Source: a virus (Duplodnaviria; Caudoviricetes). From it: DNA of 61,284 nucleotides. The stretch is taken from the IMG/VR virus record IMGVR_UViG_3300028115_001382, positions 1 through 61,284 of that record; one strand, 5' to 3'. The position numbers and the translations under genes are program-made. A model generated the notes under the pieces. That model had not been told where the DNA came from. It searched no databases and saw only the letters and a program-made list of their open reading frames with translations. How positions within the stretch are numbered: the stretch's first letter is position 1; each line of letters starts with the position of its first letter. This document shows positions 2 to 31,447 of this stretch, piece by piece.

Positions 2-301
2 ACTTATGGACACGCAGCATCAAACTTTGTAAGAAGTTGGTATGAGAAAACAAAAGAAGAAAATGGTTTAAATGATGTAGATTCAGCGTTAGAAATAATG
101 GTTGATCAACTTGGAATGAATGAAAACTTTGCTGATGGTAAAGTAAAAGGCAAAAGCAGACCAGGGCGTGTAAAGCGTTCAGGTGCTAGTTGTAATGGAA
201 GTGTTACAGCATTACGCAAAAGGGCTAAAAATAGTAGTGGTGAAAAAGCGAGGATGTATCATTGGTGCGCAAACATGAAGTCGGGCAAAAAGAAAAAATA
301 G
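2..301 (+). CDS. 5'-partial Lys-rich putative head/internal protein
   Basis: Frame is open from base 2 to TAG 299-301; ends with an E-delimited module (MNE-NFADGKVKGKSRPGRVK...HWCANMKSGKKKK). Confidence 0.6.
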   Translation, partial: TYGHAASNFVRSWYEKTKEENGLNDVDSALEIMVDQLGMNENFADGKVKGKSRPGRVKRSGASCNGSVTALRKRAKNSSGEKARMYHWCANMKSGKKKK

Positions 302-18866: not shown

Positions 18867-19749
18867 TAAACGTGGAATGGATTTTGGTAGTGCGTTTGCT
18901 ATTCAAGAACCTGAGTCTTTAAAATTACTAAGACAACCTTTAGATTTACAATGCGTCAATAGTGATAGTATTATTGACGAATTTCTTTATGATTACAACA
19001 AATGGATCAATAGCACTACTACAAATAACATAACTGGATTAGAAGATTTTCCATTTAAATGTTATAGTAATGGAACTACAGAAGCATTTGATAAATTTTA
19101 TATGAAAAATGCTAAGAGGCGATTTAGATGCTTCAAAGGCGAGTATATGTATCATAAACTTGCTTGGCGTGATAAATTTGTTTGGTCATACTTAGAAGAT
19201 GACGAACTACATAAAGCAGATGCTGTTGTAATTAGTTTACCATTTGCTGATACTGGAAATAAACACGAGAAATATCACGACTTAATGCGGCAGTGTAGCG
19301 AACTAAACGTTCCTGTACTAGTTGATTGTGCTTACTTTGGTGTTTGTAGAGATATTCATATCGACGTAGCTTACAAATGTATTACTGATGTGACTTTTAG
19401 TTTAAGTAAAAGTTTTCCGTTAGCATATGCTAGAATTGGGATAAGATATACTAAGGTTGACGATGATGATACTATGTTTGTGTATCATAAAATCAATTAT
19501 AATAACAAAATTGGTGCGAGTTTAGGATTAAAATTTTTAAACTATTTTACTCCAGATTATATGTCTAATAAATATCTTGACAAACAAGCAGAATTCTGTA
19601 ATACTTTAAATGTAACACCGAGTAAAACAGTGCTATTTGGTATCGATAACAACAATCAATATCCTCAGTATAACAGAGGCGGAACTACAAACAGATTAAG
19701 TTTCCACAAACAATATATAAAAGGACTAGATATTGCCAGTACAAAGTAA
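18847..19749 (+). CDS. PLP-dependent fold-type I enzyme (aminotransferase-like)
   Basis: GTTEAF, DCAY, FSLSKSF...RIG. Confidence 0.75.
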   Translation: MTNIPNDKRGMDFGSAFAIQEPESLKLLRQPLDLQCVNSDSIIDEFLYDYNKWINSTTTNNITGLEDFPFKCYSNGTTEAFDKFYMKNAKRRFRCFKGEYMYHKLAWRDKFVWSYLEDDELHKADAVVISLPFADTGNKHEKYHDLMRQCSELNVPVLVDCAYFGVCRDIHIDVAYKCITDVTFSLSKSFPLAYARIGIRYTKVDDDDTMFVYHKINYNNKIGASLGLKFLNYFTPDYMSNKYLDKQAEFCNTLNVTPSKTVLFGIDNNNQYPQYNRGGTTNRLSFHKQYIKGLDIASTK

Positions 19750-20788
19750 CAACGATTGGGATCCATTAGAAGAAATTATTATTGGCACTGCCGATAACTG
19801 TGTACATCCTACTATGAACAAAAGCACACATAGTTTTATCTATGGAGGCGAACAATATGAAGATATTAAACATTTTAACGGACAACCTATTGCTCAATGG
19901 ATTGTAGATGAAGCAAACGAAGATCTAGAAGGATTGGAAAAGTGCTTACAAGGATTGGGTGTAAAAACAATGCGTCCAGATCCTGTAGACCATAATCAAA
20001 AGTTTAGCACACCCGAATGGGAAACAACAGGGTGGTATACATTCTGTCCAAGAGACCTGTTATTACCGTTGGATAATATGATTATTGAATGTCCTAGCCC
20101 AATGCGAGCACGTTATTTTGAGACTAGAGCATATTACGAACACCTGTATCGCTGGATGAAAGAAGGTGTACAATGGATCAATGCTCCTAAACCTATTCTA
20201 ACTGATGACAACTATCAACTGGAGGACCGCAGTGAAGCAACGCTTGTTAACAAAGAAATTATTTTTGATGCTCCTAATATCGTTCGTCTTGGCCGCGATC
20301 TTCTCTGCCAAGTTAGCAATAGTGGCAACCAACTTGGTTTTGAGTGGCTGAAAACTATACTAGAACCCAAAGGCTATCGTATCCACGTAGCAGAAAAGTA
20401 TTACAGTTTCGCACACTTTGACAGCACAGTGTTACCTTTGCGTCCAGGACTAGTGTTGTTAAACGCAGGACGTTTAAGTGAAGATTGGTATCCACCTATC
20501 TTTAAGGATTGGGATAAAATTTGGGTAGGCGAAGAAGATCTACACGTACCGCCAGCAAACACAGGTGTTGCTCCTTGTTCTCCGTATATTGGATTGAACT
20601 TTTTAAGTGTCAATCCGGAACTTGTTATTGTAGATGAAAAGCAAGAATCACTAAGACGTATACTAGGCAAGCACGGTATCGAAACTATTGGGTTACCAAT
20701 GCGTCAAGCACGTAGCATGAGTGGTGGATTTCACTGTGCTACACTAGACACTAAACGCAAAGGGAGTTTAGAAGATTATTTTAGATGA
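19733..20788 (+). CDS. amidinotransferase (glycine/inosamine-phosphate family)
   Basis: CPRD, FDA, HFDS, GGFHCATLD. Confidence 0.9.
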   Translation: MPVQSNNDWDPLEEIIIGTADNCVHPTMNKSTHSFIYGGEQYEDIKHFNGQPIAQWIVDEANEDLEGLEKCLQGLGVKTMRPDPVDHNQKFSTPEWETTGWYTFCPRDLLLPLDNMIIECPSPMRARYFETRAYYEHLYRWMKEGVQWINAPKPILTDDNYQLEDRSEATLVNKEIIFDAPNIVRLGRDLLCQVSNSGNQLGFEWLKTILEPKGYRIHVAEKYYSFAHFDSTVLPLRPGLVLLNAGRLSEDWYPPIFKDWDKIWVGEEDLHVPPANTGVAPCSPYIGLNFLSVNPELVIVDEKQESLRRILGKHGIETIGLPMRQARSMSGGFHCATLDTKRKGSLEDYFR

Positions 20789-20897: not shown

Positions 20898-22031
20898 ATG
20901 TATATAGAAGCAGATGGAGAATTTCCACATTTAGACAATTTGTCCTTTAACTGTGACTCAACCTTACATATATTTTTACGTGAGCTACCTAGTTTTGGTA
21001 TTGATCCCAAAATTAATTTTACTGAACCTGAAACTTGTACACTTTATCGAACAACAGATTGGAAGTCCTATAAACCAATGTATATAGGGCTGGCTAATAA
21101 TGATAAAATTAACATCTGTTACGAAGTTGCTGCTATTAAAAAATTTTGTGATAGAAATAATATTGAAGATTATGTAATATATACCGGCTGTTATAATTTA
21201 AATTTAAAAAGAATTTATCCTAGCATAAAATTTGAAACATTAGACTACATTTTATACTGGTTATTGCGTAAAGGTAATACAAGCACAATAACAACCTTTA
21301 ATAAAAAACAAAACAACAAACACTTAGATAAAATTAGTAGTAAATTTATATGTACAAATAGACGTTATGAGGGTATAAGAGAATTAGTTGCCTCTTACAT
21401 GCTAGATTATGATACTATTTTGTCGTTTAATAAATCAAGAATAGATTTTACAATATTTTATAAAAATAAAGATGTTACTAAAAAACTTTATTGGTCTAAT
21501 ATTGACGATAGATTGTGTTTTGATTACTCAAAGTTGCCAAAAAAATACAAAACCAACATGTATAGTATATCAAAATCGTTGGTTATTGATTATGATATGG
21601 ACAATGAAGCAGGAGATATTGATGATAAAGTAGGAAGGTTTATGAACTTAGAACAATACTACAAAGCATTTTGTGCTGTGATAACTGAATCAAGGTTCTT
21701 TATGCCTTATGGTCATTTTGCCGATAAAACTTTAAATGCTGTTAAGACTATGAGGCCTTTTGTTTTATTTTCAAGTCCTTATACACTTGAATATATGAGA
21801 TCTTTAGGATTTAAAACATTTGATACATTTTGGGACGAATCATATGACGTCGAAGAAGATCATATGTTAAGATATCAGAAGGTATGCGATACAATTGACA
21901 GCATTAATAACTATAGTATAGACGAGTGTAAAATGCTCTACAGCAAATTATCACACATAGTAGAACATAACTTTGATATTTTATTAAAACTACAAACACA
22001 ACTCGGAGACTATGATGAAACACAGTATTGA
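20898..22031 (+). CDS. hypothetical, possibly glycosyltransferase-like; frame open upstream to 20772
   Basis: ITES...ADKT...PF...GFKTF..FWDESYD; paralog of 39708. Confidence 0.55.
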   Translation: MYIEADGEFPHLDNLSFNCDSTLHIFLRELPSFGIDPKINFTEPETCTLYRTTDWKSYKPMYIGLANNDKINICYEVAAIKKFCDRNNIEDYVIYTGCYNLNLKRIYPSIKFETLDYILYWLLRKGNTSTITTFNKKQNNKHLDKISSKFICTNRRYEGIRELVASYMLDYDTILSFNKSRIDFTIFYKNKDVTKKLYWSNIDDRLCFDYSKLPKKYKTNMYSISKSLVIDYDMDNEAGDIDDKVGRFMNLEQYYKAFCAVITESRFFMPYGHFADKTLNAVKTMRPFVLFSSPYTLEYMRSLGFKTFDTFWDESYDVEEDHMLRYQKVCDTIDSINNYSIDECKMLYSKLSHIVEHNFDILLKLQTQLGDYDETQY

Positions 22032-22236
22032 GCAATGGATAGAGCGTATTAATACCATGAAAGATTTATGTATTCAAGCTCATCGTTTACGAAATGAATT
22101 TAGTGAACTAGCAGACAAAACATTTGACGAAGCGCAGTGTAAACATATGCTCGAACAAGTTCAGTCTATGGCAGCAGGCATAGCAAACGAAGAAATAACA
22201 ACAATAAAAACTGATATGGATGAGTGGAAAAAATGA
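22012..22236 (+). CDS. hypothetical protein
   Basis: ORF with GGAG SD. Confidence 0.6.
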   Translation: MMKHSIEQWIERINTMKDLCIQAHRLRNEFSELADKTFDEAQCKHMLEQVQSMAAGIANEEITTIKTDMDEWKK

Positions 22237-22787
22237 TTGAAAAAGAATATAGCATGGAAGACGTAATGAAAGGCATTAGTAACATTGTTACTCAAATGTA
22301 TAAAGATAGTTGGCGACCTGATTATATTGTCGGTATCAACAGAGGCGGATTACCTATAAGTGTTGTGTTAAGTCACATGATTGATGTTACACATTATTGT
22401 TTAGACGTAAGGCTTAGAGATAACAAAGATAAGCAAGGACCAGAAAGTAACTGCTGGATGGCAGAGGATGCGTTCGGATACTTGTACAAACCCGATCGTG
22501 ACGATGTATACGGTAAAGGTACTTGTCAGCCGAAGATGCGTAAAAATATCCTTATTGTAGATGATATCAACGACACTGGCGCAACCTTTAAATGGATCAA
22601 AGAAGACTGGGAATCTGGTTGCTTGCCCGGACACGAAGGATGGCAAGACGTATGGAACCAAAATGTTCGCTTTGCTGCTCTTTGTGAAAAGACACATACA
22701 AAGTTTGACGGTGTAGACTATTATTGGGAAGAAATTGACACAAGCGAGCAAGACACTTGGGTAGTGTTTCCGTGGGAAAATGTATGA
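22233..22787 (+). CDS. purine phosphoribosyltransferase (Gpt-like)
   Basis: INRGGL, ILIVDDINDTGAT, WVVFPWE. Confidence 0.85.
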   Translation: MIEKEYSMEDVMKGISNIVTQMYKDSWRPDYIVGINRGGLPISVVLSHMIDVTHYCLDVRLRDNKDKQGPESNCWMAEDAFGYLYKPDRDDVYGKGTCQPKMRKNILIVDDINDTGATFKWIKEDWESGCLPGHEGWQDVWNQNVRFAALCEKTHTKFDGVDYYWEEIDTSEQDTWVVFPWENV

Positions 22788-23017
22788 TAAAAGAATGGTC
22801 ACTTAAAGATATTAAAAACGAGATAAGTAAAATATCGTGGGCAGAATCTGATCCTCGTATGGATGGATTTGTGACTTGGGGATGTAAGCAAGAGCTTTAC
22901 GAAATCCTTTGGTATGTGGAAGAAAAATTGCGTAAGTGTTCAACCTACGCAGGCGAAGAAGACTTCCTCAAAGAACACGATAAAGAAATGACGTGGAGAA
23001 TATTAAATGAAGACTAA
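22784..23017 (+). CDS. hypothetical protein
   Basis: ATGA overlap with upstream gene. Confidence 0.6.
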   Translation: MIKEWSLKDIKNEISKISWAESDPRMDGFVTWGCKQELYEILWYVEEKLRKCSTYAGEEDFLKEHDKEMTWRILNED

Positions 23018-23192
23018 GTATGCTATAAAGTTAATGTTGTCTGCTGATGACTGGATTTACGTGACTGAAGATACCGAAGCACCTATGTTTCAAATTCATC
23101 CAATGTTATTTAATACCAGACATGAAGCTGAGGAACATGCTGAAACTTGGAACAAAAGAGTTACTAAAGTAGTTAGATGGAGAGAACGATGA
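23007..23192 (+). CDS. hypothetical protein
   Basis: ORF with GGAG SD. Confidence 0.6.
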   Translation: MKTKYAIKLMLSADDWIYVTEDTEAPMFQIHPMLFNTRHEAEEHAETWNKRVTKVVRWRER

Positions 23193-23317
23193 GTTGTACT
23201 TGTGGCAGATCGCCAACTGGTAGATGTATAGGTTGGCACAAACTAACAGAGGAACAATACCTCGAGAAAAAAGCAGAGTATGAAGCAAGACAGACACAGA
23301 AGGAGAATAACAAATGA
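23189..23317 (+). CDS. 42-aa Cys3His mini-protein (CDGSH-like), not in track
   Basis: MSCTCGRSPTGRCIGWHKLTEEQY...; ATGA overlaps at both ends. Confidence 0.65.
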   Translation: MSCTCGRSPTGRCIGWHKLTEEQYLEKKAEYEARQTQKENNK

Positions 23318-23520
23318 GTATGTCAGCACAATTAATTAAAGCAGCAAGAATGCACGCCGAAGGTGAGCTTGAAAGAGCTAAAACTAACATTTTGGTTTAT
23401 ATGAATCAAAGTGTTGGTATTGGTGAGCATAGTGATATTGTTGAAGCGATTCAAGAAGAACTTGATAAAATGGCTGCGGCAGAAGATCGCATTGAAATGT
23501 TACAAAAACATTTTTCTTGA
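23314..23520 (+). CDS. small conserved-type phage protein
   Basis: VGIGEHSDIVEAI; AGGAG SD. Confidence 0.7.
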   Translation: MSMSAQLIKAARMHAEGELERAKTNILVYMNQSVGIGEHSDIVEAIQEELDKMAAAEDRIEMLQKHFS

Positions 23521-23545
23521 CTTTTTATCTAAATAATGTTACTAT
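23517..23545 (+). promoter_or_regulatory. sigma70-type promoter of folE
   Basis: TTGACT-N17-TACTAT with TGn extension. Confidence 0.7.
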
Positions 23546-23550
23546 AAACA

Positions 23551-23583
23551 ATAGACATCCTCGTCTATAACTCGGAGAATAAA
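23551..23583 (+). promoter_or_regulatory. structured 5' leader of folE (hairpin with anti-SD loop)
   Basis: ATAGAC-ATCCTC-GTCTAT stem-loop followed by AACTC-GGAG SD. Confidence 0.5.
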
Positions 23584-24288
23584 ATGACAGAAGACTTAAA
23601 CACTTATGCCTCTCATAAGATTCGATCTAGACTTAAAGAAGCTGGAGGCAGATACTGGGCTGGTGACAACATCAGCCAGTATATCGAAGAAGGTGAGCGT
23701 GAAGAGCTCATTGAAGAACTTACTATAAAATTTGAAGGTGTTTTACAAAGCCTTGTAATTGACACTGATAATGATCCTAATTCTATGGACACCGCAAGAC
23801 GTCTTGCGAAAATGTATGTTAAAGAATTGTTGAGCGGAAGGTATGACCCAATGCCTAATGCTACAGCATTTCCTAACCATACAGAAGATCGTTATGATGG
23901 TATGTTGGTTGTTCGCAGTGAACTTACAAGCATGTGTTCACATCATCACCAAACTGTTAAAGGTGTGGCGTATATTGGTATCATTGCTGCTGATACACTT
24001 ATTGGACTTAGTAAATACACACGCATTGCCCAATGGTGTGCTAGACGTGGAACACTACAAGAAGAACTCGCTATGGATATTGCTAAAGAAATTATGAAAG
24101 CAACTGGCAGCAACGATGTTGCTGTTTATATCCAAGCTACACATGGTTGTTGCGAGAATCGTGGTATTCAAGCGCACAGCAGTCTTACACAAACAACTGT
24201 GCTAAAAGGTTGTTTCAAGTCAGATGATGCTGTTAAAAAAGAGTTTATGGATAATATTAAATTACAACAAGGATACTCACCACGATGA
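23584..24288 (+). CDS. folE: GTP cyclohydrolase I
   Basis: SMCSHH, IGLSKY.RI, LQE, HGCCENRG. Confidence 0.95.
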   Translation: MTEDLNTYASHKIRSRLKEAGGRYWAGDNISQYIEEGEREELIEELTIKFEGVLQSLVIDTDNDPNSMDTARRLAKMYVKELLSGRYDPMPNATAFPNHTEDRYDGMLVVRSELTSMCSHHHQTVKGVAYIGIIAADTLIGLSKYTRIAQWCARRGTLQEELAMDIAKEIMKATGSNDVAVYIQATHGCCENRGIQAHSSLTQTTVLKGCFKSDDAVKKEFMDNIKLQQGYSPR

Positions 24289-24449
24289 CAGAACCAGTAG
24301 ATGTAAGTAAAAAACACTTTTATATTAGTTTAGTTAAAAGTGCTGTGCGTATAGCAGGATGTGCTGTATGCTTGTATACAGGCAGTGTAGTATGGTTGGC
24401 AAGTGGTTTTCTTGTTGCTGAACTACTTGGCATAGCGGAGGAGCTGTAA
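24285..24449 (+). CDS. small membrane protein (54 aa, not in track)
   Basis: HFYISLVKSAVRI...AELLGIAEEL*; coupled to both folE and queE. Confidence 0.7.
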   Translation: MTEPVDVSKKHFYISLVKSAVRIAGCAVCLYTGSVVWLASGFLVAELLGIAEEL

Positions 24450-25345
24450 TGAAGTTACGTTATAGCGAAGCTTTTTATAGTGTACAAGGCGAAGGCAAGT
24501 TTGTAGGAGTACCTAGTGTATTCCTACGCACCTTCGGTTGTAACTTCCGTTGTATGAACTTTGGTGTTGATAAAAGTGTTGGCGATCGTTGGGAGCAACA
24601 TGCTCGTGGTGAACGTTATAACGCAGAAGTAAAACAACTACTAGATGACGGTGTTCATGAAACTACAAAAGAGTTTAACGACTTACCTATTGTACACACA
24701 GGCTGTGATACATACGCAAGTATCTATCCAGAATTTAAACACTTCAATATGCTTAAAAGCGTAGACGAAGTTGTAGAGCATTTGCTTAGTTTATTGCCAG
24801 AAGGTAAATGGACTATGGATAACGGACAGGACGTTCACCTTATACTTACAGGCGGTGAACCTTTGTTGGCGTGGCAACGACTGTATGTAGAACTATTTGA
24901 ACACCCACGTATGCAGGATCTAAAAAATGTCACAATCGAAACCAACACTACACAGCATCTACACGATGACTTCTACAACTACCTCAGCAAGCATGAACGA
25001 ATTCAGCTCACTTTTAGCTGTTCTCCCAAACTATCCGTTTCGGGCGAGTCTTGGGATGATGCTATTAAGCCTGATGTTGCTCGTGAGTATTCCCTTGTTG
25101 ATGGCAGCGATATGTATTTTAAGTTTGTTGTTGCTGATCAGAGTGATGTTGACGAAGTTGCTAGAGCAGTTGATTCGTATCGTGAAGCGGGCGTGGACGT
25201 CCCTGTATATCTTATGCCGCTTGGGGGTAGGTCGGAAGAATACACTCTCAACGTACAAGAGGTGGCGAACCTCTGTATGGAACGAGGGTGGAGGTTCTCG
25301 CCAAGACTACACATCAGCTTATTCGGAAATGCCTGGGGCACTTAA
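24449..25345 (+). CDS. queE: 7-carboxy-7-deazaguanine synthase (radical SAM)
   Basis: EAFYSVQGEG, FLRTFGCNFRC...GCDT, TGGEP, IETN, SPK, PRLH. Confidence 0.9.
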   Translation: MKLRYSEAFYSVQGEGKFVGVPSVFLRTFGCNFRCMNFGVDKSVGDRWEQHARGERYNAEVKQLLDDGVHETTKEFNDLPIVHTGCDTYASIYPEFKHFNMLKSVDEVVEHLLSLLPEGKWTMDNGQDVHLILTGGEPLLAWQRLYVELFEHPRMQDLKNVTIETNTTQHLHDDFYNYLSKHERIQLTFSCSPKLSVSGESWDDAIKPDVAREYSLVDGSDMYFKFVVADQSDVDEVARAVDSYREAGVDVPVYLMPLGGRSEEYTLNVQEVANLCMERGWRFSPRLHISLFGNAWGT

Positions 25346-25414
25346 AGAAAACTTAGATAGTATTCCAAAAGGCATCAAAAGCGAAGAGGAATACGAAAAG
25401 ATAAGGAAACTTAT

Positions 25415-25798
25415 ATGAAAAAATGGCTTAAAGATATAACAGGCATTAGTGCTAAAGAAAAAGAACTAGAAGAAAAAGAACTAGCAGTACTAGATAAAAC
25501 TGATCCTAAGGCTGCTGCTACTAAACGTGGTGAGCCTTGGGTAAATGTGTTAGATATGCAAGTAAATCAAGAAAACATTCGTAATGGATTCTTTGAACTT
25601 GACTGGAATACATACTTCATTAAAGAACTTATAGCAAATGGGTATGGCGAACAAGCAGACCCCGAAGAAGAAATTGTTGACAGATGGTTCCGAGATATAG
25701 TATATAATATGTTACAGGAAGAAGAAATTGATTCTAATGTTCAAACAGGTTATATTAATGTTGTGCCAATTGACAAAGGCAAAAGCGAGGTATCATGA
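25415..25798 (+). CDS. hypothetical protein
   Basis: GFFELDWN...IVDRWF. Confidence 0.7.
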   Translation: MKKWLKDITGISAKEKELEEKELAVLDKTDPKAAATKRGEPWVNVLDMQVNQENIRNGFFELDWNTYFIKELIANGYGEQADPEEEIVDRWFRDIVYNMLQEEEIDSNVQTGYINVVPIDKGKSEVS

Positions 25799-30066: not shown

Positions 30067-30111
30067 TTGACAAAAGTAAATAGTAGTGTATTATAAGTGT
30101 ATAGGCACTGA
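30067..30111 (+). promoter_or_regulatory. promoter plus repeated leader, copy 2
   Basis: TTGACA-N16-TATTAT followed by TGTATAGGCACTGA. Confidence 0.65.
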
Positions 30112-30121
30112 GAGGAATAAC

Positions 30122-31447
30122 ATGTTAGATTTTTTACCGCACTATGTAGCAATGAAAATGTCTACAGAAAAAACAGCATCTGAATTAAGAACATGGCAAC
30201 CAGATCCTGATTTAACTGAAGAACAACTTGTCGAAATGGATAAAGAAGTATACGAGCGGATTGTTACTGCTCGTGTTGGCTTATTATTACGACACCCATT
30301 CTTTGGCAATATGGCTACACGTTTAAAAATCCAACGTGCTGATTGGCTTCCTACTGCTGCCGTAGATGGTCGCAACTTGTTCTACAATGTTCAATTCTTT
30401 AATGCTATGAACAATAAAGAAATTGAATTTGTTGTAGCACATGAAATCCTTCATATGGTGTTTGATCATTTAGAACGTAGAGAAGATAGAGATCCACGTT
30501 TGTATAATATTTCATGTGATTATATTGTAAACAATACGCTAGTTGATGATCGCATTGGATCAGTTCCTAGCATTGTAAATTGCTTTCAAGATTTTAAATA
30601 TCGCGGATGGGCTAGTGAAGCAGTATATGATGACTTATACAAACAAGCAGAAAAAAATGGCAAAGAATTCTTAGAACAATTTGGTGAAATGCTAGACGAA
30701 CATATCGACTGGGGTGATGGTGATGGTGATGGCGAAGAGGGTAAAAGCGGCGATGGTAAAAGTAAACGTCCTGTTTACACTAAAGCAGAACGTGATCAAA
30801 TAAAAGATGAAATAAAAGAAGCAATGATACAAGCGGCGCAAAGTGCCGGTGCTGGTAACGTTCCTGCTGGTGTTCAGCGATTAATTAAAGAAATTACTGA
30901 ACCAAAAATGAACTGGCGTGAAATTATACAACAACAAATTCAAAGTACAATTAAAAGCGATTACACGTTCAGCCGTCCTTCACGTAAAGGCTGGCATACT
31001 GGTGCTGTTTTGCCTGGTATGAATTTTGAAGAAACTATTGATATTGCTATTGCTATCGATATGAGTGGTAGTATTGGTAACAGTCAAGCCGCAGACTTCT
31101 TAGGCGAAGTAAAAGGTATTATGGAACAATACAAAGATTATAAAATTAAGATTTGGTGTTTTGATACTAAAGTATACAACGAAGATGACTTTTCAGCAGA
31201 TGATGGTAGAGACATCTCTGAATACGAAATTGCTGGTGGCGGTGGCACTGACTTTATGGTGAACTGGACATATATGAAAGAAAATAATATAACTCCTAAG
31301 CGGTTTTTGATGTTTACAGATGGTTATGCTTGGGATAGTTGGGGCGATCCAGATTGGTGTGAAACAGTATTTTTAATCCATTCACATCATGATAAAAACC
31401 TTGAGGCGCCTTTTGGTATGACAACACACTATGAGGAAGCGGCTTGA
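30122..31447 (+). CDS. metallopeptidase-VWA protein (DUF2201-like), MoxR partner
   Basis: HEILH; MIDAS DMSGS, GGGTDF, FTDG. Confidence 0.85.
   Translation: MLDFLPHYVAMKMSTEKTASELRTWQPDPDLTEEQLVEMDKEVYERIVTARVGLLLRHPFFGNMATRLKIQRADWLPTAAVDGRNLFYNVQFFNAMNNKEIEFVVAHEILHMVFDHLERREDRDPRLYNISCDYIVNNTLVDDRIGSVPSIVNCFQDFKYRGWASEAVYDDLYKQAEKNGKEFLEQFGEMLDEHIDWGDGDGDGEEGKSGDGKSKRPVYTKAERDQIKDEIKEAMIQAAQSAGAGNVPAGVQRLIKEITEPKMNWREIIQQQIQSTIKSDYTFSRPSRKGWHTGAVLPGMNFEETIDIAIAIDMSGSIGNSQAADFLGEVKGIMEQYKDYKIKIWCFDTKVYNEDDFSADDGRDISEYEIAGGGGTDFMVNWTYMKENNITPKRFLMFTDGYAWDSWGDPDWCETVFLIHSHHDKNLEAPFGMTTHYEEAA

Follow-up and report, generated by a model that had tools for sequence, protein, structure and literature searches.

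A compact leader element conserved upstream of phage folE genes, with a predicted H-type pseudoknot, as a candidate translational switch

The folE leader of the window

The DNA considered here (hereafter the window) is the whole 61,284-nucleotide (nt) stretch of IMG/VR virus record IMGVR_UViG_3300028115_001382, a 61-kb fragment of a caudoviricete genome with a CheckV completeness of 17%, and the element in question is the short leader that precedes its folE gene. This gene (23584–24288, + strand), the candidate target of regulation, encodes a GTP cyclohydrolase I of 234 amino acids that matches PF01227 (E 4e-40) and for which the FolE models rank best among those of NCBIfam, with scores under their cut-offs. 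On the same + strand, folE is preceded by a sigma-70-like promoter (23517–23545) consisting of a −35 hexamer TTGACT (23517–23522), a 17-nt spacer containing a conserved CTAAATA (23529–23535) and a TG (23537–23538), and a −10 hexamer TACTAT (23540–23545). Downstream of it are found the 5′ strand of a helix, P1 (AGAC, 23553–23556), a loop AUCCUC (23557–23562) whose first base, A 23557, constitutes L1, the 3′ strand of P1 (GUCU, 23563–23566), a linker, L3, with the sequence AU-AAC-UC (23567–23573), in which AAC (23569–23571) and UC (23572–23573) are conserved, and the Shine–Dalgarno (SD) sequence GGAG (23574–23577), six bases after which comes the ATG of folE (23584–23586). Within the loop, UCC (23558–23560) is the anti-SD, i.e., the 5′ strand of a second helix, P2, whose 3′ strand is the GGA of the SD (23574–23576); the following U 23561 is variable, being A, U or C in relatives, and the near-invariant C 23562 abuts the 3′ strand of P1 on its 5′ side. 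In the window the stem extends beyond P1 to give a 6-bp hairpin, ATAGAC (23551–23556) pairing with GTCTAT (23563–23568). A previous reading of these letters without comparison (the sequence-only reading) had reported the hairpin, the loop, the AACUC, the GGAG and the promoter, and all of them are present as and where it described them.

Taken by themselves, these features are not above chance and their significance comes from comparison. The minimum free energy of the window hairpin is −5.4 kcal/mol (z = −0.21), 79 of 200 shuffled sequences folding as well or better, and promoter-like sites occur in the surrounding 8-kb region at chance density (30 vs 28.8 ± 6.3 expected). Loop plus tail are present in one copy in the window against 0.00 expected, and a covariance model of the element (R1; 31 positions, built from 35 gapless examples) finds a single site in the window with 49.1 bits (E 6.5e-13), the runner-up being a tail-only match of 9.6 bits. 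Weak additional R1 matches, at window positions 1480 and 21995 and in contigs G001 and G005, were rejected, their match being confined to the tail with the hairpin lacking. The site at 21995–22011 (+) is a second AACTCGGAGA ribosome site, devoid of a hairpin and upstream of an open reading frame (ORF) starting at 22012; as a ribosome site, TCGGAG is rare in the window (2 of 88 crude ORFs).

Conservation of the leader and its association with folE

A FolE-based scan of viral contigs yielded 590 relatives among 598 candidate stretches, the best 80 loci of which were used. When their leaders are lined up on the start codon, hairpin, loop and tail are mostly shared and the letters of the stem differ. 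R1 matches 58 of these 80 loci, in all cases directly upstream of FolE and on its strand, and nowhere else in the 481,833 bases; in a second FolE clade, 41–43% identical to the FolE of the window, an R1 match is found upstream of folE in 32 of 80 loci. Five large motif-bearing contigs (44–75% complete) contain one significant R1 copy apiece. The compact, structured folE leader that the sequence-only reading had perceived in one copy is therefore a recurrent element, and the collected leaders of relatives reveal not only its conservation but also covariation at all four pairs of P1 and at one pair of P2. Among the 22 FolE loci without an R1 match, one has a divergent form of the motif (L067, E 3.3), one has no upstream sequence (L004) and 20 are without the motif; from our reading of the latter leaders, folE comes after coding-looking sequence and has a different ribosome site. 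A further form, CCAAUCUAUUGGAG, is seen in the folE leaders of L045 and L374, where a simple hairpin of 4 bp, and not a pseudoknot, contains the GG of the SD.

The association with folE is also seen with a pattern blind to the stem (ATCCWC, 4–10 nt, AAC, 0–1 nt, TCGGAGA). This pattern, in which the stem is left unspecified, is present in at least 119 stretches of the viral contigs; among the matches listed, 97 have three or more consecutive flanking pairs, and 91 of these 97 are directly upstream of a FolE homolog, while 22 have zero to two pairs, none of them being at folE. In a control with contigs of prokaryote genomes, where the pattern occurs in at least 120 stretches, 71, 29, 9, 8 and 3 of the matches listed have 0, 1, 2, 3 and 4 flanking pairs, respectively; accordingly, 11 have at least three pairs, and none is upstream of a FolE homolog. 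A relaxed pattern proved too permissive when applied to whole loci and was used just for listing loop types and variants adjoining folE.

The six exceptions among the 97 are L084 and L160 (both cut by the locus end), L154, L126, L135 and L156. L154, whose leader is the same as that of L393, has an in-frame TAG at folE codon 18, where relatives have a Tyr (R-Y-W-A-G-D), which might be due to nonsense mutation, to an error in sequencing or to stop-codon reassignment. In L126 (548–937), L135 (minus strand) and L156 (1479–1877) an ORF of 129–132 amino acids belonging to no known family lies between the motif and the position of folE; its copy in L126 has no PHROG match. In L126 and L135 folE follows this inserted ORF with overlapping stop and start, and L156 ends too early to tell.

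Hence the motif is present in many uncultured large phages and is found exclusively with folE. It is absent from the three cultured phages closest by FolE, namely Sinorhizobium phage Phosso, Rhizobium phage RHph_I1_18 and Vibrio phage 2.275.O, and a near-identity DNA search of the phage records of GenBank gave no match for the window. Compared with L001–L003, promoter and leader of the window are identical over ~65 nt, FolE is 92% identical and the flanks differ.

Promoter, transcript start and translation start

Of 122 distinct motif contexts, 82 have a site of the type TTGACN-16..18-TANNNT within 90 nt upstream of the motif, and in 56 of these 82 the end of the −10 hexamer is separated from the 4-bp stem by 7–13 nt. 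The predicted RNA would thus begin 0–6 nt before P1, so that the leader would be hardly longer than the motif itself, and transcription in the window is predicted to start at about 23551–23553; the start at the stem postulated by the sequence-only reading fits the family. On the other hand, copies of the motif without a promoter occur in coding-dense sequence (e.g., L009, L019 and L028), which indicates that the motif is tied to the ribosome-binding site and not to the transcription start. The distance from GGAG to the start codon is 5–10 nt in 120 of 121 cases. An unusually high fraction of the motif-bearing folE genes (47 of 121) has a TTG start codon, which fits a folE held at a low and tightly controlled level of translation.

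The folE promoter itself is a conserved cassette composed of TTGACA, 5–6 nt, (C)CTAAATA, about 5 nt and TATAAT, the CTAAATA box being present in 110 of 122 motif contexts. This box is not enriched window-wide (18 copies vs 21.5 expected), so that the idea of CTAAATA as a general late promoter here was dropped; at folE it could represent a protein site or else an additional promoter resembling the late promoters of T4 and cyanophages.

In four salt-marsh metatranscriptome runs, contigs cover 22500–25600 at ≥99% identity, some of them bridging the leader, contigs of this kind revealing neither starts nor strand and possibly containing DNA, so that they have no bearing on start or regulation. The match of one short contig of these data is limited to 23550–23589, beyond which the sequences part, suggesting that a related phage shares this leader.

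Helix P1 and its coupling to the linker

The pairing counts rest on three alignments of fixed geometry (A3, A4 and A7). A3 comprises 51 distinct gapless hairpins for which at least three pairs were required, the three inner pairs of P1 being therefore fixed by selection; the fourth pair, free of this selection, is formed in 42 of the 51 (GC 15, UA 12, AU 9, CG 5, UG 1). The three outer pairs beyond the 4-bp stem are paired in 29–41% of the 51 sequences and, being so poorly kept, indicate that the conserved stem has 4 bp and that the 6 bp of the window are a local extension. Of the 6-bp stem proposed by the sequence-only reading, which does exist in the window, the inner four pairs (23553–23556/23563–23566) are thus the conserved part. 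The stems encountered include AGAC/GUCU, UGAC/GUCA, GGAC/GUCC, CGAC/GUCG, GGUC/GACC, UGUC/GACA and GGCA/UGCC, to which CGCA/UGCG, CCCA/UGGG, GCCA/UGGC, AGGG/CCCU, GGCG/CGCC and AGUG/CACU must be added. In A7, which contains 53 distinct sequences with the pseudoknot and whose rows had to contain three stem pairs and to match a pattern that prescribes a large part of loop and tail, 95.3% of the P1 cells are paired and two-sided changes are seen at four of four pairs; its covariation score is 0.526 as compared to 0.106 ± 0.017 after shuffling (0 of 500 shuffles reaching it) and to at most 0.141 with slid partners.

A coupling exists, furthermore, between the closing pair of P1 and the linker. The 115 distinct FolE-linked motifs fall into three classes, C-G with AAC-UC (65), A-U with AACA-UC (44) and G-C with AAC-UC (6), none of the 115 belonging to a mixed class. 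On a FastTree phylogeny of the FolE proteins the closing-pair/linker state changes at least 21 times, which is an upper reading, and of the independent pairs on supported branches 10 out of 10 are concordant (sign test, p about 0.002). This coupling is suggestive of L3 touching P1 at its top.

Helix P2 and the pseudoknot

The loops of the unique motif sequences are AUCCAC (66), AUCCUC (31) and AUCCCC (4), with the addition of rare variants. In A7, P2 is 100% paired, one of its pairs being UA in 49 and CG in 4 sequences and the two C-G pairs being invariant. The SD being constrained, rare loop variants were sought directly. A complete scan for ACCCWC ... AACATCGG(N)AGA gave 106 stretches, 12 of which have at least three stem pairs; each of these is located upstream of FolE and has GGGAGA, so that the loop C faces a G. 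A second scan, for ACCCWC ... AACTCGG(N)AGA, gave at least 120 stretches, the genuine motifs among the matches listed being L834 (GGGAG) and L742 (GGAG). Combining both scans, and counting for the second the matches listed, GGGAG accompanies 13 of the 14 loop-C motifs found at folE; these motifs are built on three different stems (CGCA, GGCA and AGAC) and occur in both FolE clades. Conversely, none of the 124 matches listed combines at folE an AUCCWC loop with GGGAG. The concerted change of the loop U to C and of GGAG to GGGAG supports an H-type pseudoknot. Thus, the anti-SD loop inferred by the sequence-only reading is upheld in its UCC:GGA form, with 13 of 14 variants compensated; its alternative CUC:GAG register is not conserved, since most relatives have the loop AUCCAC.

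The other loop variants found are UCUCGC, accompanied by UAGGAG (L067 and L077), AUCCAU with AGAGAG (L486) and GUCCUC (L483), and AUC-AUC tails occur in L447, L462 and L465. The final base of the loop is a C in all unique sequences but the degenerate variant L486, and the position after the 5′ strand of P1 is an A in all 53 rows of A7, G or U being present in rare variants.

The 4-bp hairpin has a median stability of −3.0 kcal/mol (range −6.0 to −1.4), and the median probability that the GGA of the SD stays unpaired is 0.95 in the nested ensemble. A nested fold that leaves the SD open, and helices of 4 and 3 bp that are too small to hold unaided, imply that a stabilizer is needed.

Comparison with known RNA elements

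Rfam 15 was searched at E ≤ 10 with 501 nt and with 61 nt (both for the motif of the window and for a type-B motif) and at the gathering score with the whole window, and no family was matched in any of these searches. The statement of the sequence-only reading that the leader does not match the preQ1 consensus is therefore confirmed by the empty searches (E ≤ 10) with the Rfam preQ1 family, which we take to be RF00522, and with the folE motif THF-II. The THF-II riboswitch is a cis-regulatory RNA that likewise precedes bacterial folE, being longer and having a different hairpin fold.

The T4 gene 32 mRNA leader pseudoknot and other T4 operators are small 5′ RNA structures to which a protein binds, thereby repressing translation. 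The gene 32 pseudoknot is located well upstream of the SD, whereas the motif described here uses the SD as a strand of the pseudoknot.

The closest resemblance is that with the preQ1-I riboswitches, whose aptamers are, according to PMC11625349 and PMC10622847, H-type pseudoknots in which the adenines of L3 line the minor groove of P1. As stated in PMC11625349, U-C or A-C in every case stands just before the 3′ strand of P1, the C being the Watson–Crick specificity base, and PMC10622847 presents preQ1-I as the smallest riboswitch class described. In type III, exemplified by the leader of E. coli yhhQ, a short pyrimidine-rich loop pairs with the GGA/AGG of the SD (PMC10622847 and PMC11625349). 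The phage motif is like type III in being an H-type pseudoknot of ~30 nt with a short pyrimidine-rich loop, in having a C before the 3′ strand of P1 (A-C in type III; U-C, A-C or C-C in the phages), in burying the ribosome site in a P2 where pyrimidines of the loop pair with GGA/AGG in the SD, and in preceding a gene of 7-deazaguanine metabolism, which type III controls and with which the phage motif is connected here through sequence. It differs in the loop, of 6 nt as opposed to the 8 nt that can be deduced for E. coli type III from the residue numbers quoted in PMC10622847, and in P1, which has four variable pairs instead of the three conserved G-C pairs of type III. Moreover, the phage motif sits before folE, whereas preQ1-I elements are found before bacterial yhhQ, queT or queCDEF.

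With types I and II (B. subtilis queC and T. tengcongensis) the motif shares the topology and the dinucleotide (U-C or A-C) that leads into the 3′ strand of P1; types I and II differ from it in having longer loops, a long A-rich tail and an SD just partly contained in P2. The smallest of their aptamers have 34 nt, the phage motif being shorter. In both types L3 occupies the minor groove of P1 and the RNA acts as a translational or transcriptional OFF switch (PMC11625349).

In summary, the preQ1-I-like size and topology claimed by the sequence-only reading were found, as were the C on the 5′ side of the 3′ strand of P1, the SD within P2 and the location at a 7-deazaguanine gene; the A-rich L3, the U/UU after the 5′ strand of P1 and a covariance score with Rfam are wanting. 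By analogy, the motif would work like preQ1-I, resembling type III most closely, and yet not be a member of this class. Full-text searches of the literature, supplementary files and subscription journals being outside their scope, found no description of the motif. In the main text of the principal papers on phage 7-deazaguanine (PMC10516641 and PMC6884629) the word “riboswitch” occurs 0 times, as do “phage” and “folE” in the review of the preQ1 family (PMC11625349).

Source virus and gene neighborhood

The DNA polymerase encoded in the window is of the T4 type (phrog_262), its nearest relatives being those of the jumbo phages Phosso (50% identity), Atu_ph07 (46%) and Vibrio phage 2.275.O (42%), and from these similarities the motif-bearing phages appear to be distant T4-type viruses.

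Downstream of folE and overlapping both its end and the start of the next gene is an ORF of 54 amino acids (24285–24449, + strand), for which no family was found and which probably belongs to the folE operon. It is followed by a gene for a QueE-like radical SAM protein of the 7-carboxy-7-deazaguanine (CDG) synthase family (24449–25345, + strand; phrog_2076, E 3.7e-53), for which the QueE models rank best in NCBIfam, with scores under their cut-offs. A purine-type phosphoribosyltransferase (PF00156, with weak xanthine/HGPRT matches in NCBIfam) is encoded upstream at 22224–22787 (+ strand). Over 113 loci that bear the motif and span 6 kb or more, among which the same contig may count more than once, homologs of these three proteins are present in 17 (54-residue ORF), 85 (QueE) and 76 (phosphoribosyltransferase, alongside folE and queE) loci.

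Directly upstream of folE is orf68 (23314–23520, + strand; phrog_1811, E 5e-26), which encodes a coiled-coil-like protein of 68 amino acids of unknown function and whose 3′ end falls just within the folE promoter; a homolog is found in 20 of 37 motif-bearing loci vs 0 of 18 loci without the motif. As to the remaining 7-deazaguanine genes, Pfam detects PTPS/QueD in three and QueC, weakly, in one of the five large motif-bearing contigs, and TGT/DpdA in none of the five, nor do the PTPS/QueD, QueC and TGT/DpdA models match in the window; Pfam may overlook divergent families such as DpdA3 and DpdA4 of PMC10516641.

Proposed mechanism and alternative explanations

The folE leader could be a ligand-stabilized translational OFF switch, i.e., a riboswitch built like preQ1-I, a proposal whose chances we consider evenly balanced. 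The leader would consist of a phage-specific H-type pseudoknot with 24–26 core nt, in which a 4-bp P1, a 6-nt loop A-UCC-(U/A/C)-C and a linker NN-AAC(A)-UC are followed by the 3-bp P2 that would join the UCC of the loop to the GGA of GGAG. As the nested fold leaves the SD free, translation would be on by default; a stabilizer acting in trans would lock P2, sequester the SD and cause folE translation to drop, with a possible effect on the queE-like gene downstream as well. The stabilizer would most likely be a small molecule, the invariant C preceding the 3′ strand of P1 possibly serving as a Watson–Crick specificity base for a guanine-like ligand. A product of the 7-deazaguanine pathway (CDG, preQ0, 7-deazaguanine or a derivative) is the likely candidate, and its binding would amount to end-product feedback on the first, GTP-consuming step.

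Concerning the identity of the ligand, FolE, QueD and QueE without QueC are reportedly used by Cellulophaga phage phiST in replacing its G. This replacement, by 7-deazaguanine, is complete (PMC10516641). In the light of this precedent and of the scarcity of QueC and TGT in the motif-bearing phages, we infer that CDG or 7-deazaguanine is at least as likely a ligand as preQ0 or preQ1. The co-occurrence of the phosphoribosyltransferase with folE and queE, taken with this scarcity, hints at a route in which a 7-deazapurine base is converted to a nucleotide, as opposed to a base exchange of the DpdA type; a comparable 7-deazapurine base-to-nucleotide route is the toyocamycin pathway.

Several observations weigh against a preQ1-I-like riboswitch. 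The preQ1-I model of Rfam gives no match even at E ≤ 10 on the 61-nt stretches with either type of motif. The L1 of the phages is a single A, the UU motif described for preQ1-I types I and III being missing, and one nt is perhaps too short, on geometric grounds, to accommodate a ligand layer between P1 and P2; furthermore, in the linker NN-AAC(A)-UC two adenines are conserved, or three where the closing pair is A-U, whereas the L3 of preQ1-I has 4–5 or more (PMC10622847). QueC and TGT are nearly missing by Pfam from the window and the five large contigs, so that preQ0 and preQ1 are possibly not made. As regards the RNA itself, just one of the three P2 pairs varies, the loop-C variant L742 retains GGAG and is thus uncompensated, the loop ACACAC of L030, L047 and L365 cannot form P2, the motif is missing from 20 of 79 informative FolE loci, and recombination of leader cassettes could give the same coupling between closing pair and linker.

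A bolder form of the ligand hypothesis, which we put forward tentatively and regard as more apt to fail than to hold, is that the element represents a new riboswitch class, with the smallest natural aptamer known (24–26 nt core), confined to uncultured jumbo phages and sensing a 7-deazapurine other than preQ1. Its ligand might be, for example, 7-carboxy-7-deazaguanine, 7-deazaguanine or the nucleotide produced by the neighboring phosphoribosyltransferase, and its role would be that of curbing GTP cyclohydrolase I at the time when the guanines of the phage DNA are being rewritten. Should a ligand be confirmed, the leader would be a virus-borne riboswitch governing the DNA-hypermodification pathway of its own carrier, and would be of smaller size than preQ1-I, which PMC10622847 gives as the smallest class; the ligand of the aptamer would also report which 7-deazapurine these uncultured jumbo phages make, and structural work and synthetic gene control would gain a minimal natural pseudoknot.

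It is possible, if less than probable, that the same pseudoknot is instead a translational operator bound by a protein, be it FolE, another enzyme of the pathway or a small phage protein, which would stabilize the SD-sequestering fold or merely occlude the site. Conserved unpaired nucleotides and a weak intrinsic fold suit a protein site equally well, and the phages carrying the motif are, judging from phrog_262 and the 50% identity with Phosso, distant relatives of T4, in which proteins acting on their own mRNAs have precedents in the gene 32 leader pseudoknot and in the gp43 and RegA operators. The sole lead to such a protein is orf68, whose presence in 20 of 37 motif loci vs 0 of 18 others could be accounted for equally well by synteny alone and which, having no homolog within 3 kb in the remaining 17 motif loci, cannot be obligatory. 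An autoregulatory FolE, for its part, would need an RNA specificity unchanged between clades that are only 41–43% identical, and the U-C or A-C adjoining the 3′ strand of P1 together with the SD in P2 match the known ligand-binding architecture of preQ1-I. Even with a protein partner, the leader would be a clean, covariation-supported translational operator in a group of phages with almost no functional data.

A structure without any sensor, i.e., a constitutive 5′ element that tunes initiation or shields the 5′ end of the mRNA from decay, is unlikely. In most promoter-bearing contexts the stem begins 0–6 nt after the predicted start, much as protective 5′ stem-loops begin near the mRNA start, and the TTG codons of 47 of 121 folE genes suggest a deliberately low expression; however, P1 with its 4 bp (about −3 kcal/mol) and P2 with its 3 bp are not strong enough to act by themselves, and neither the near-invariant unpaired bases nor the covariation of P2 with the SD nor the promoterless, operon-internal copies would be expected.

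Finally, an inverted-repeat operator acting at the DNA level, to which a transcription factor would bind just downstream of the folE promoter, is very improbable: P1 is indeed a DNA palindrome adjoining a conserved promoter and the CTAAATA box (110 of 122 contexts) is unexplained, but the letters of the half-sites vary freely as long as they remain complementary, the loop lacks symmetry, is conserved on one strand and covaries with an SD about 12 nt off, and the motif is also found without a promoter.

Other open reading frames of the window

Upstream of the phosphoribosyltransferase gene, an ORF of 351 amino acids (19733–20788, + strand) matches phrog_25854, a family of unknown function (E 8e-34), and has no match in Pfam or NCBIfam; its C-terminal motif resembles, by eye, the amidinotransferase/arginine deiminase fold, and a homolog is present in 5 of the 113 motif loci. 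Further downstream, an ORF of 453 amino acids (30086–31447, + strand) belongs to an HNH endonuclease family (phrog_1314, E 1e-115).

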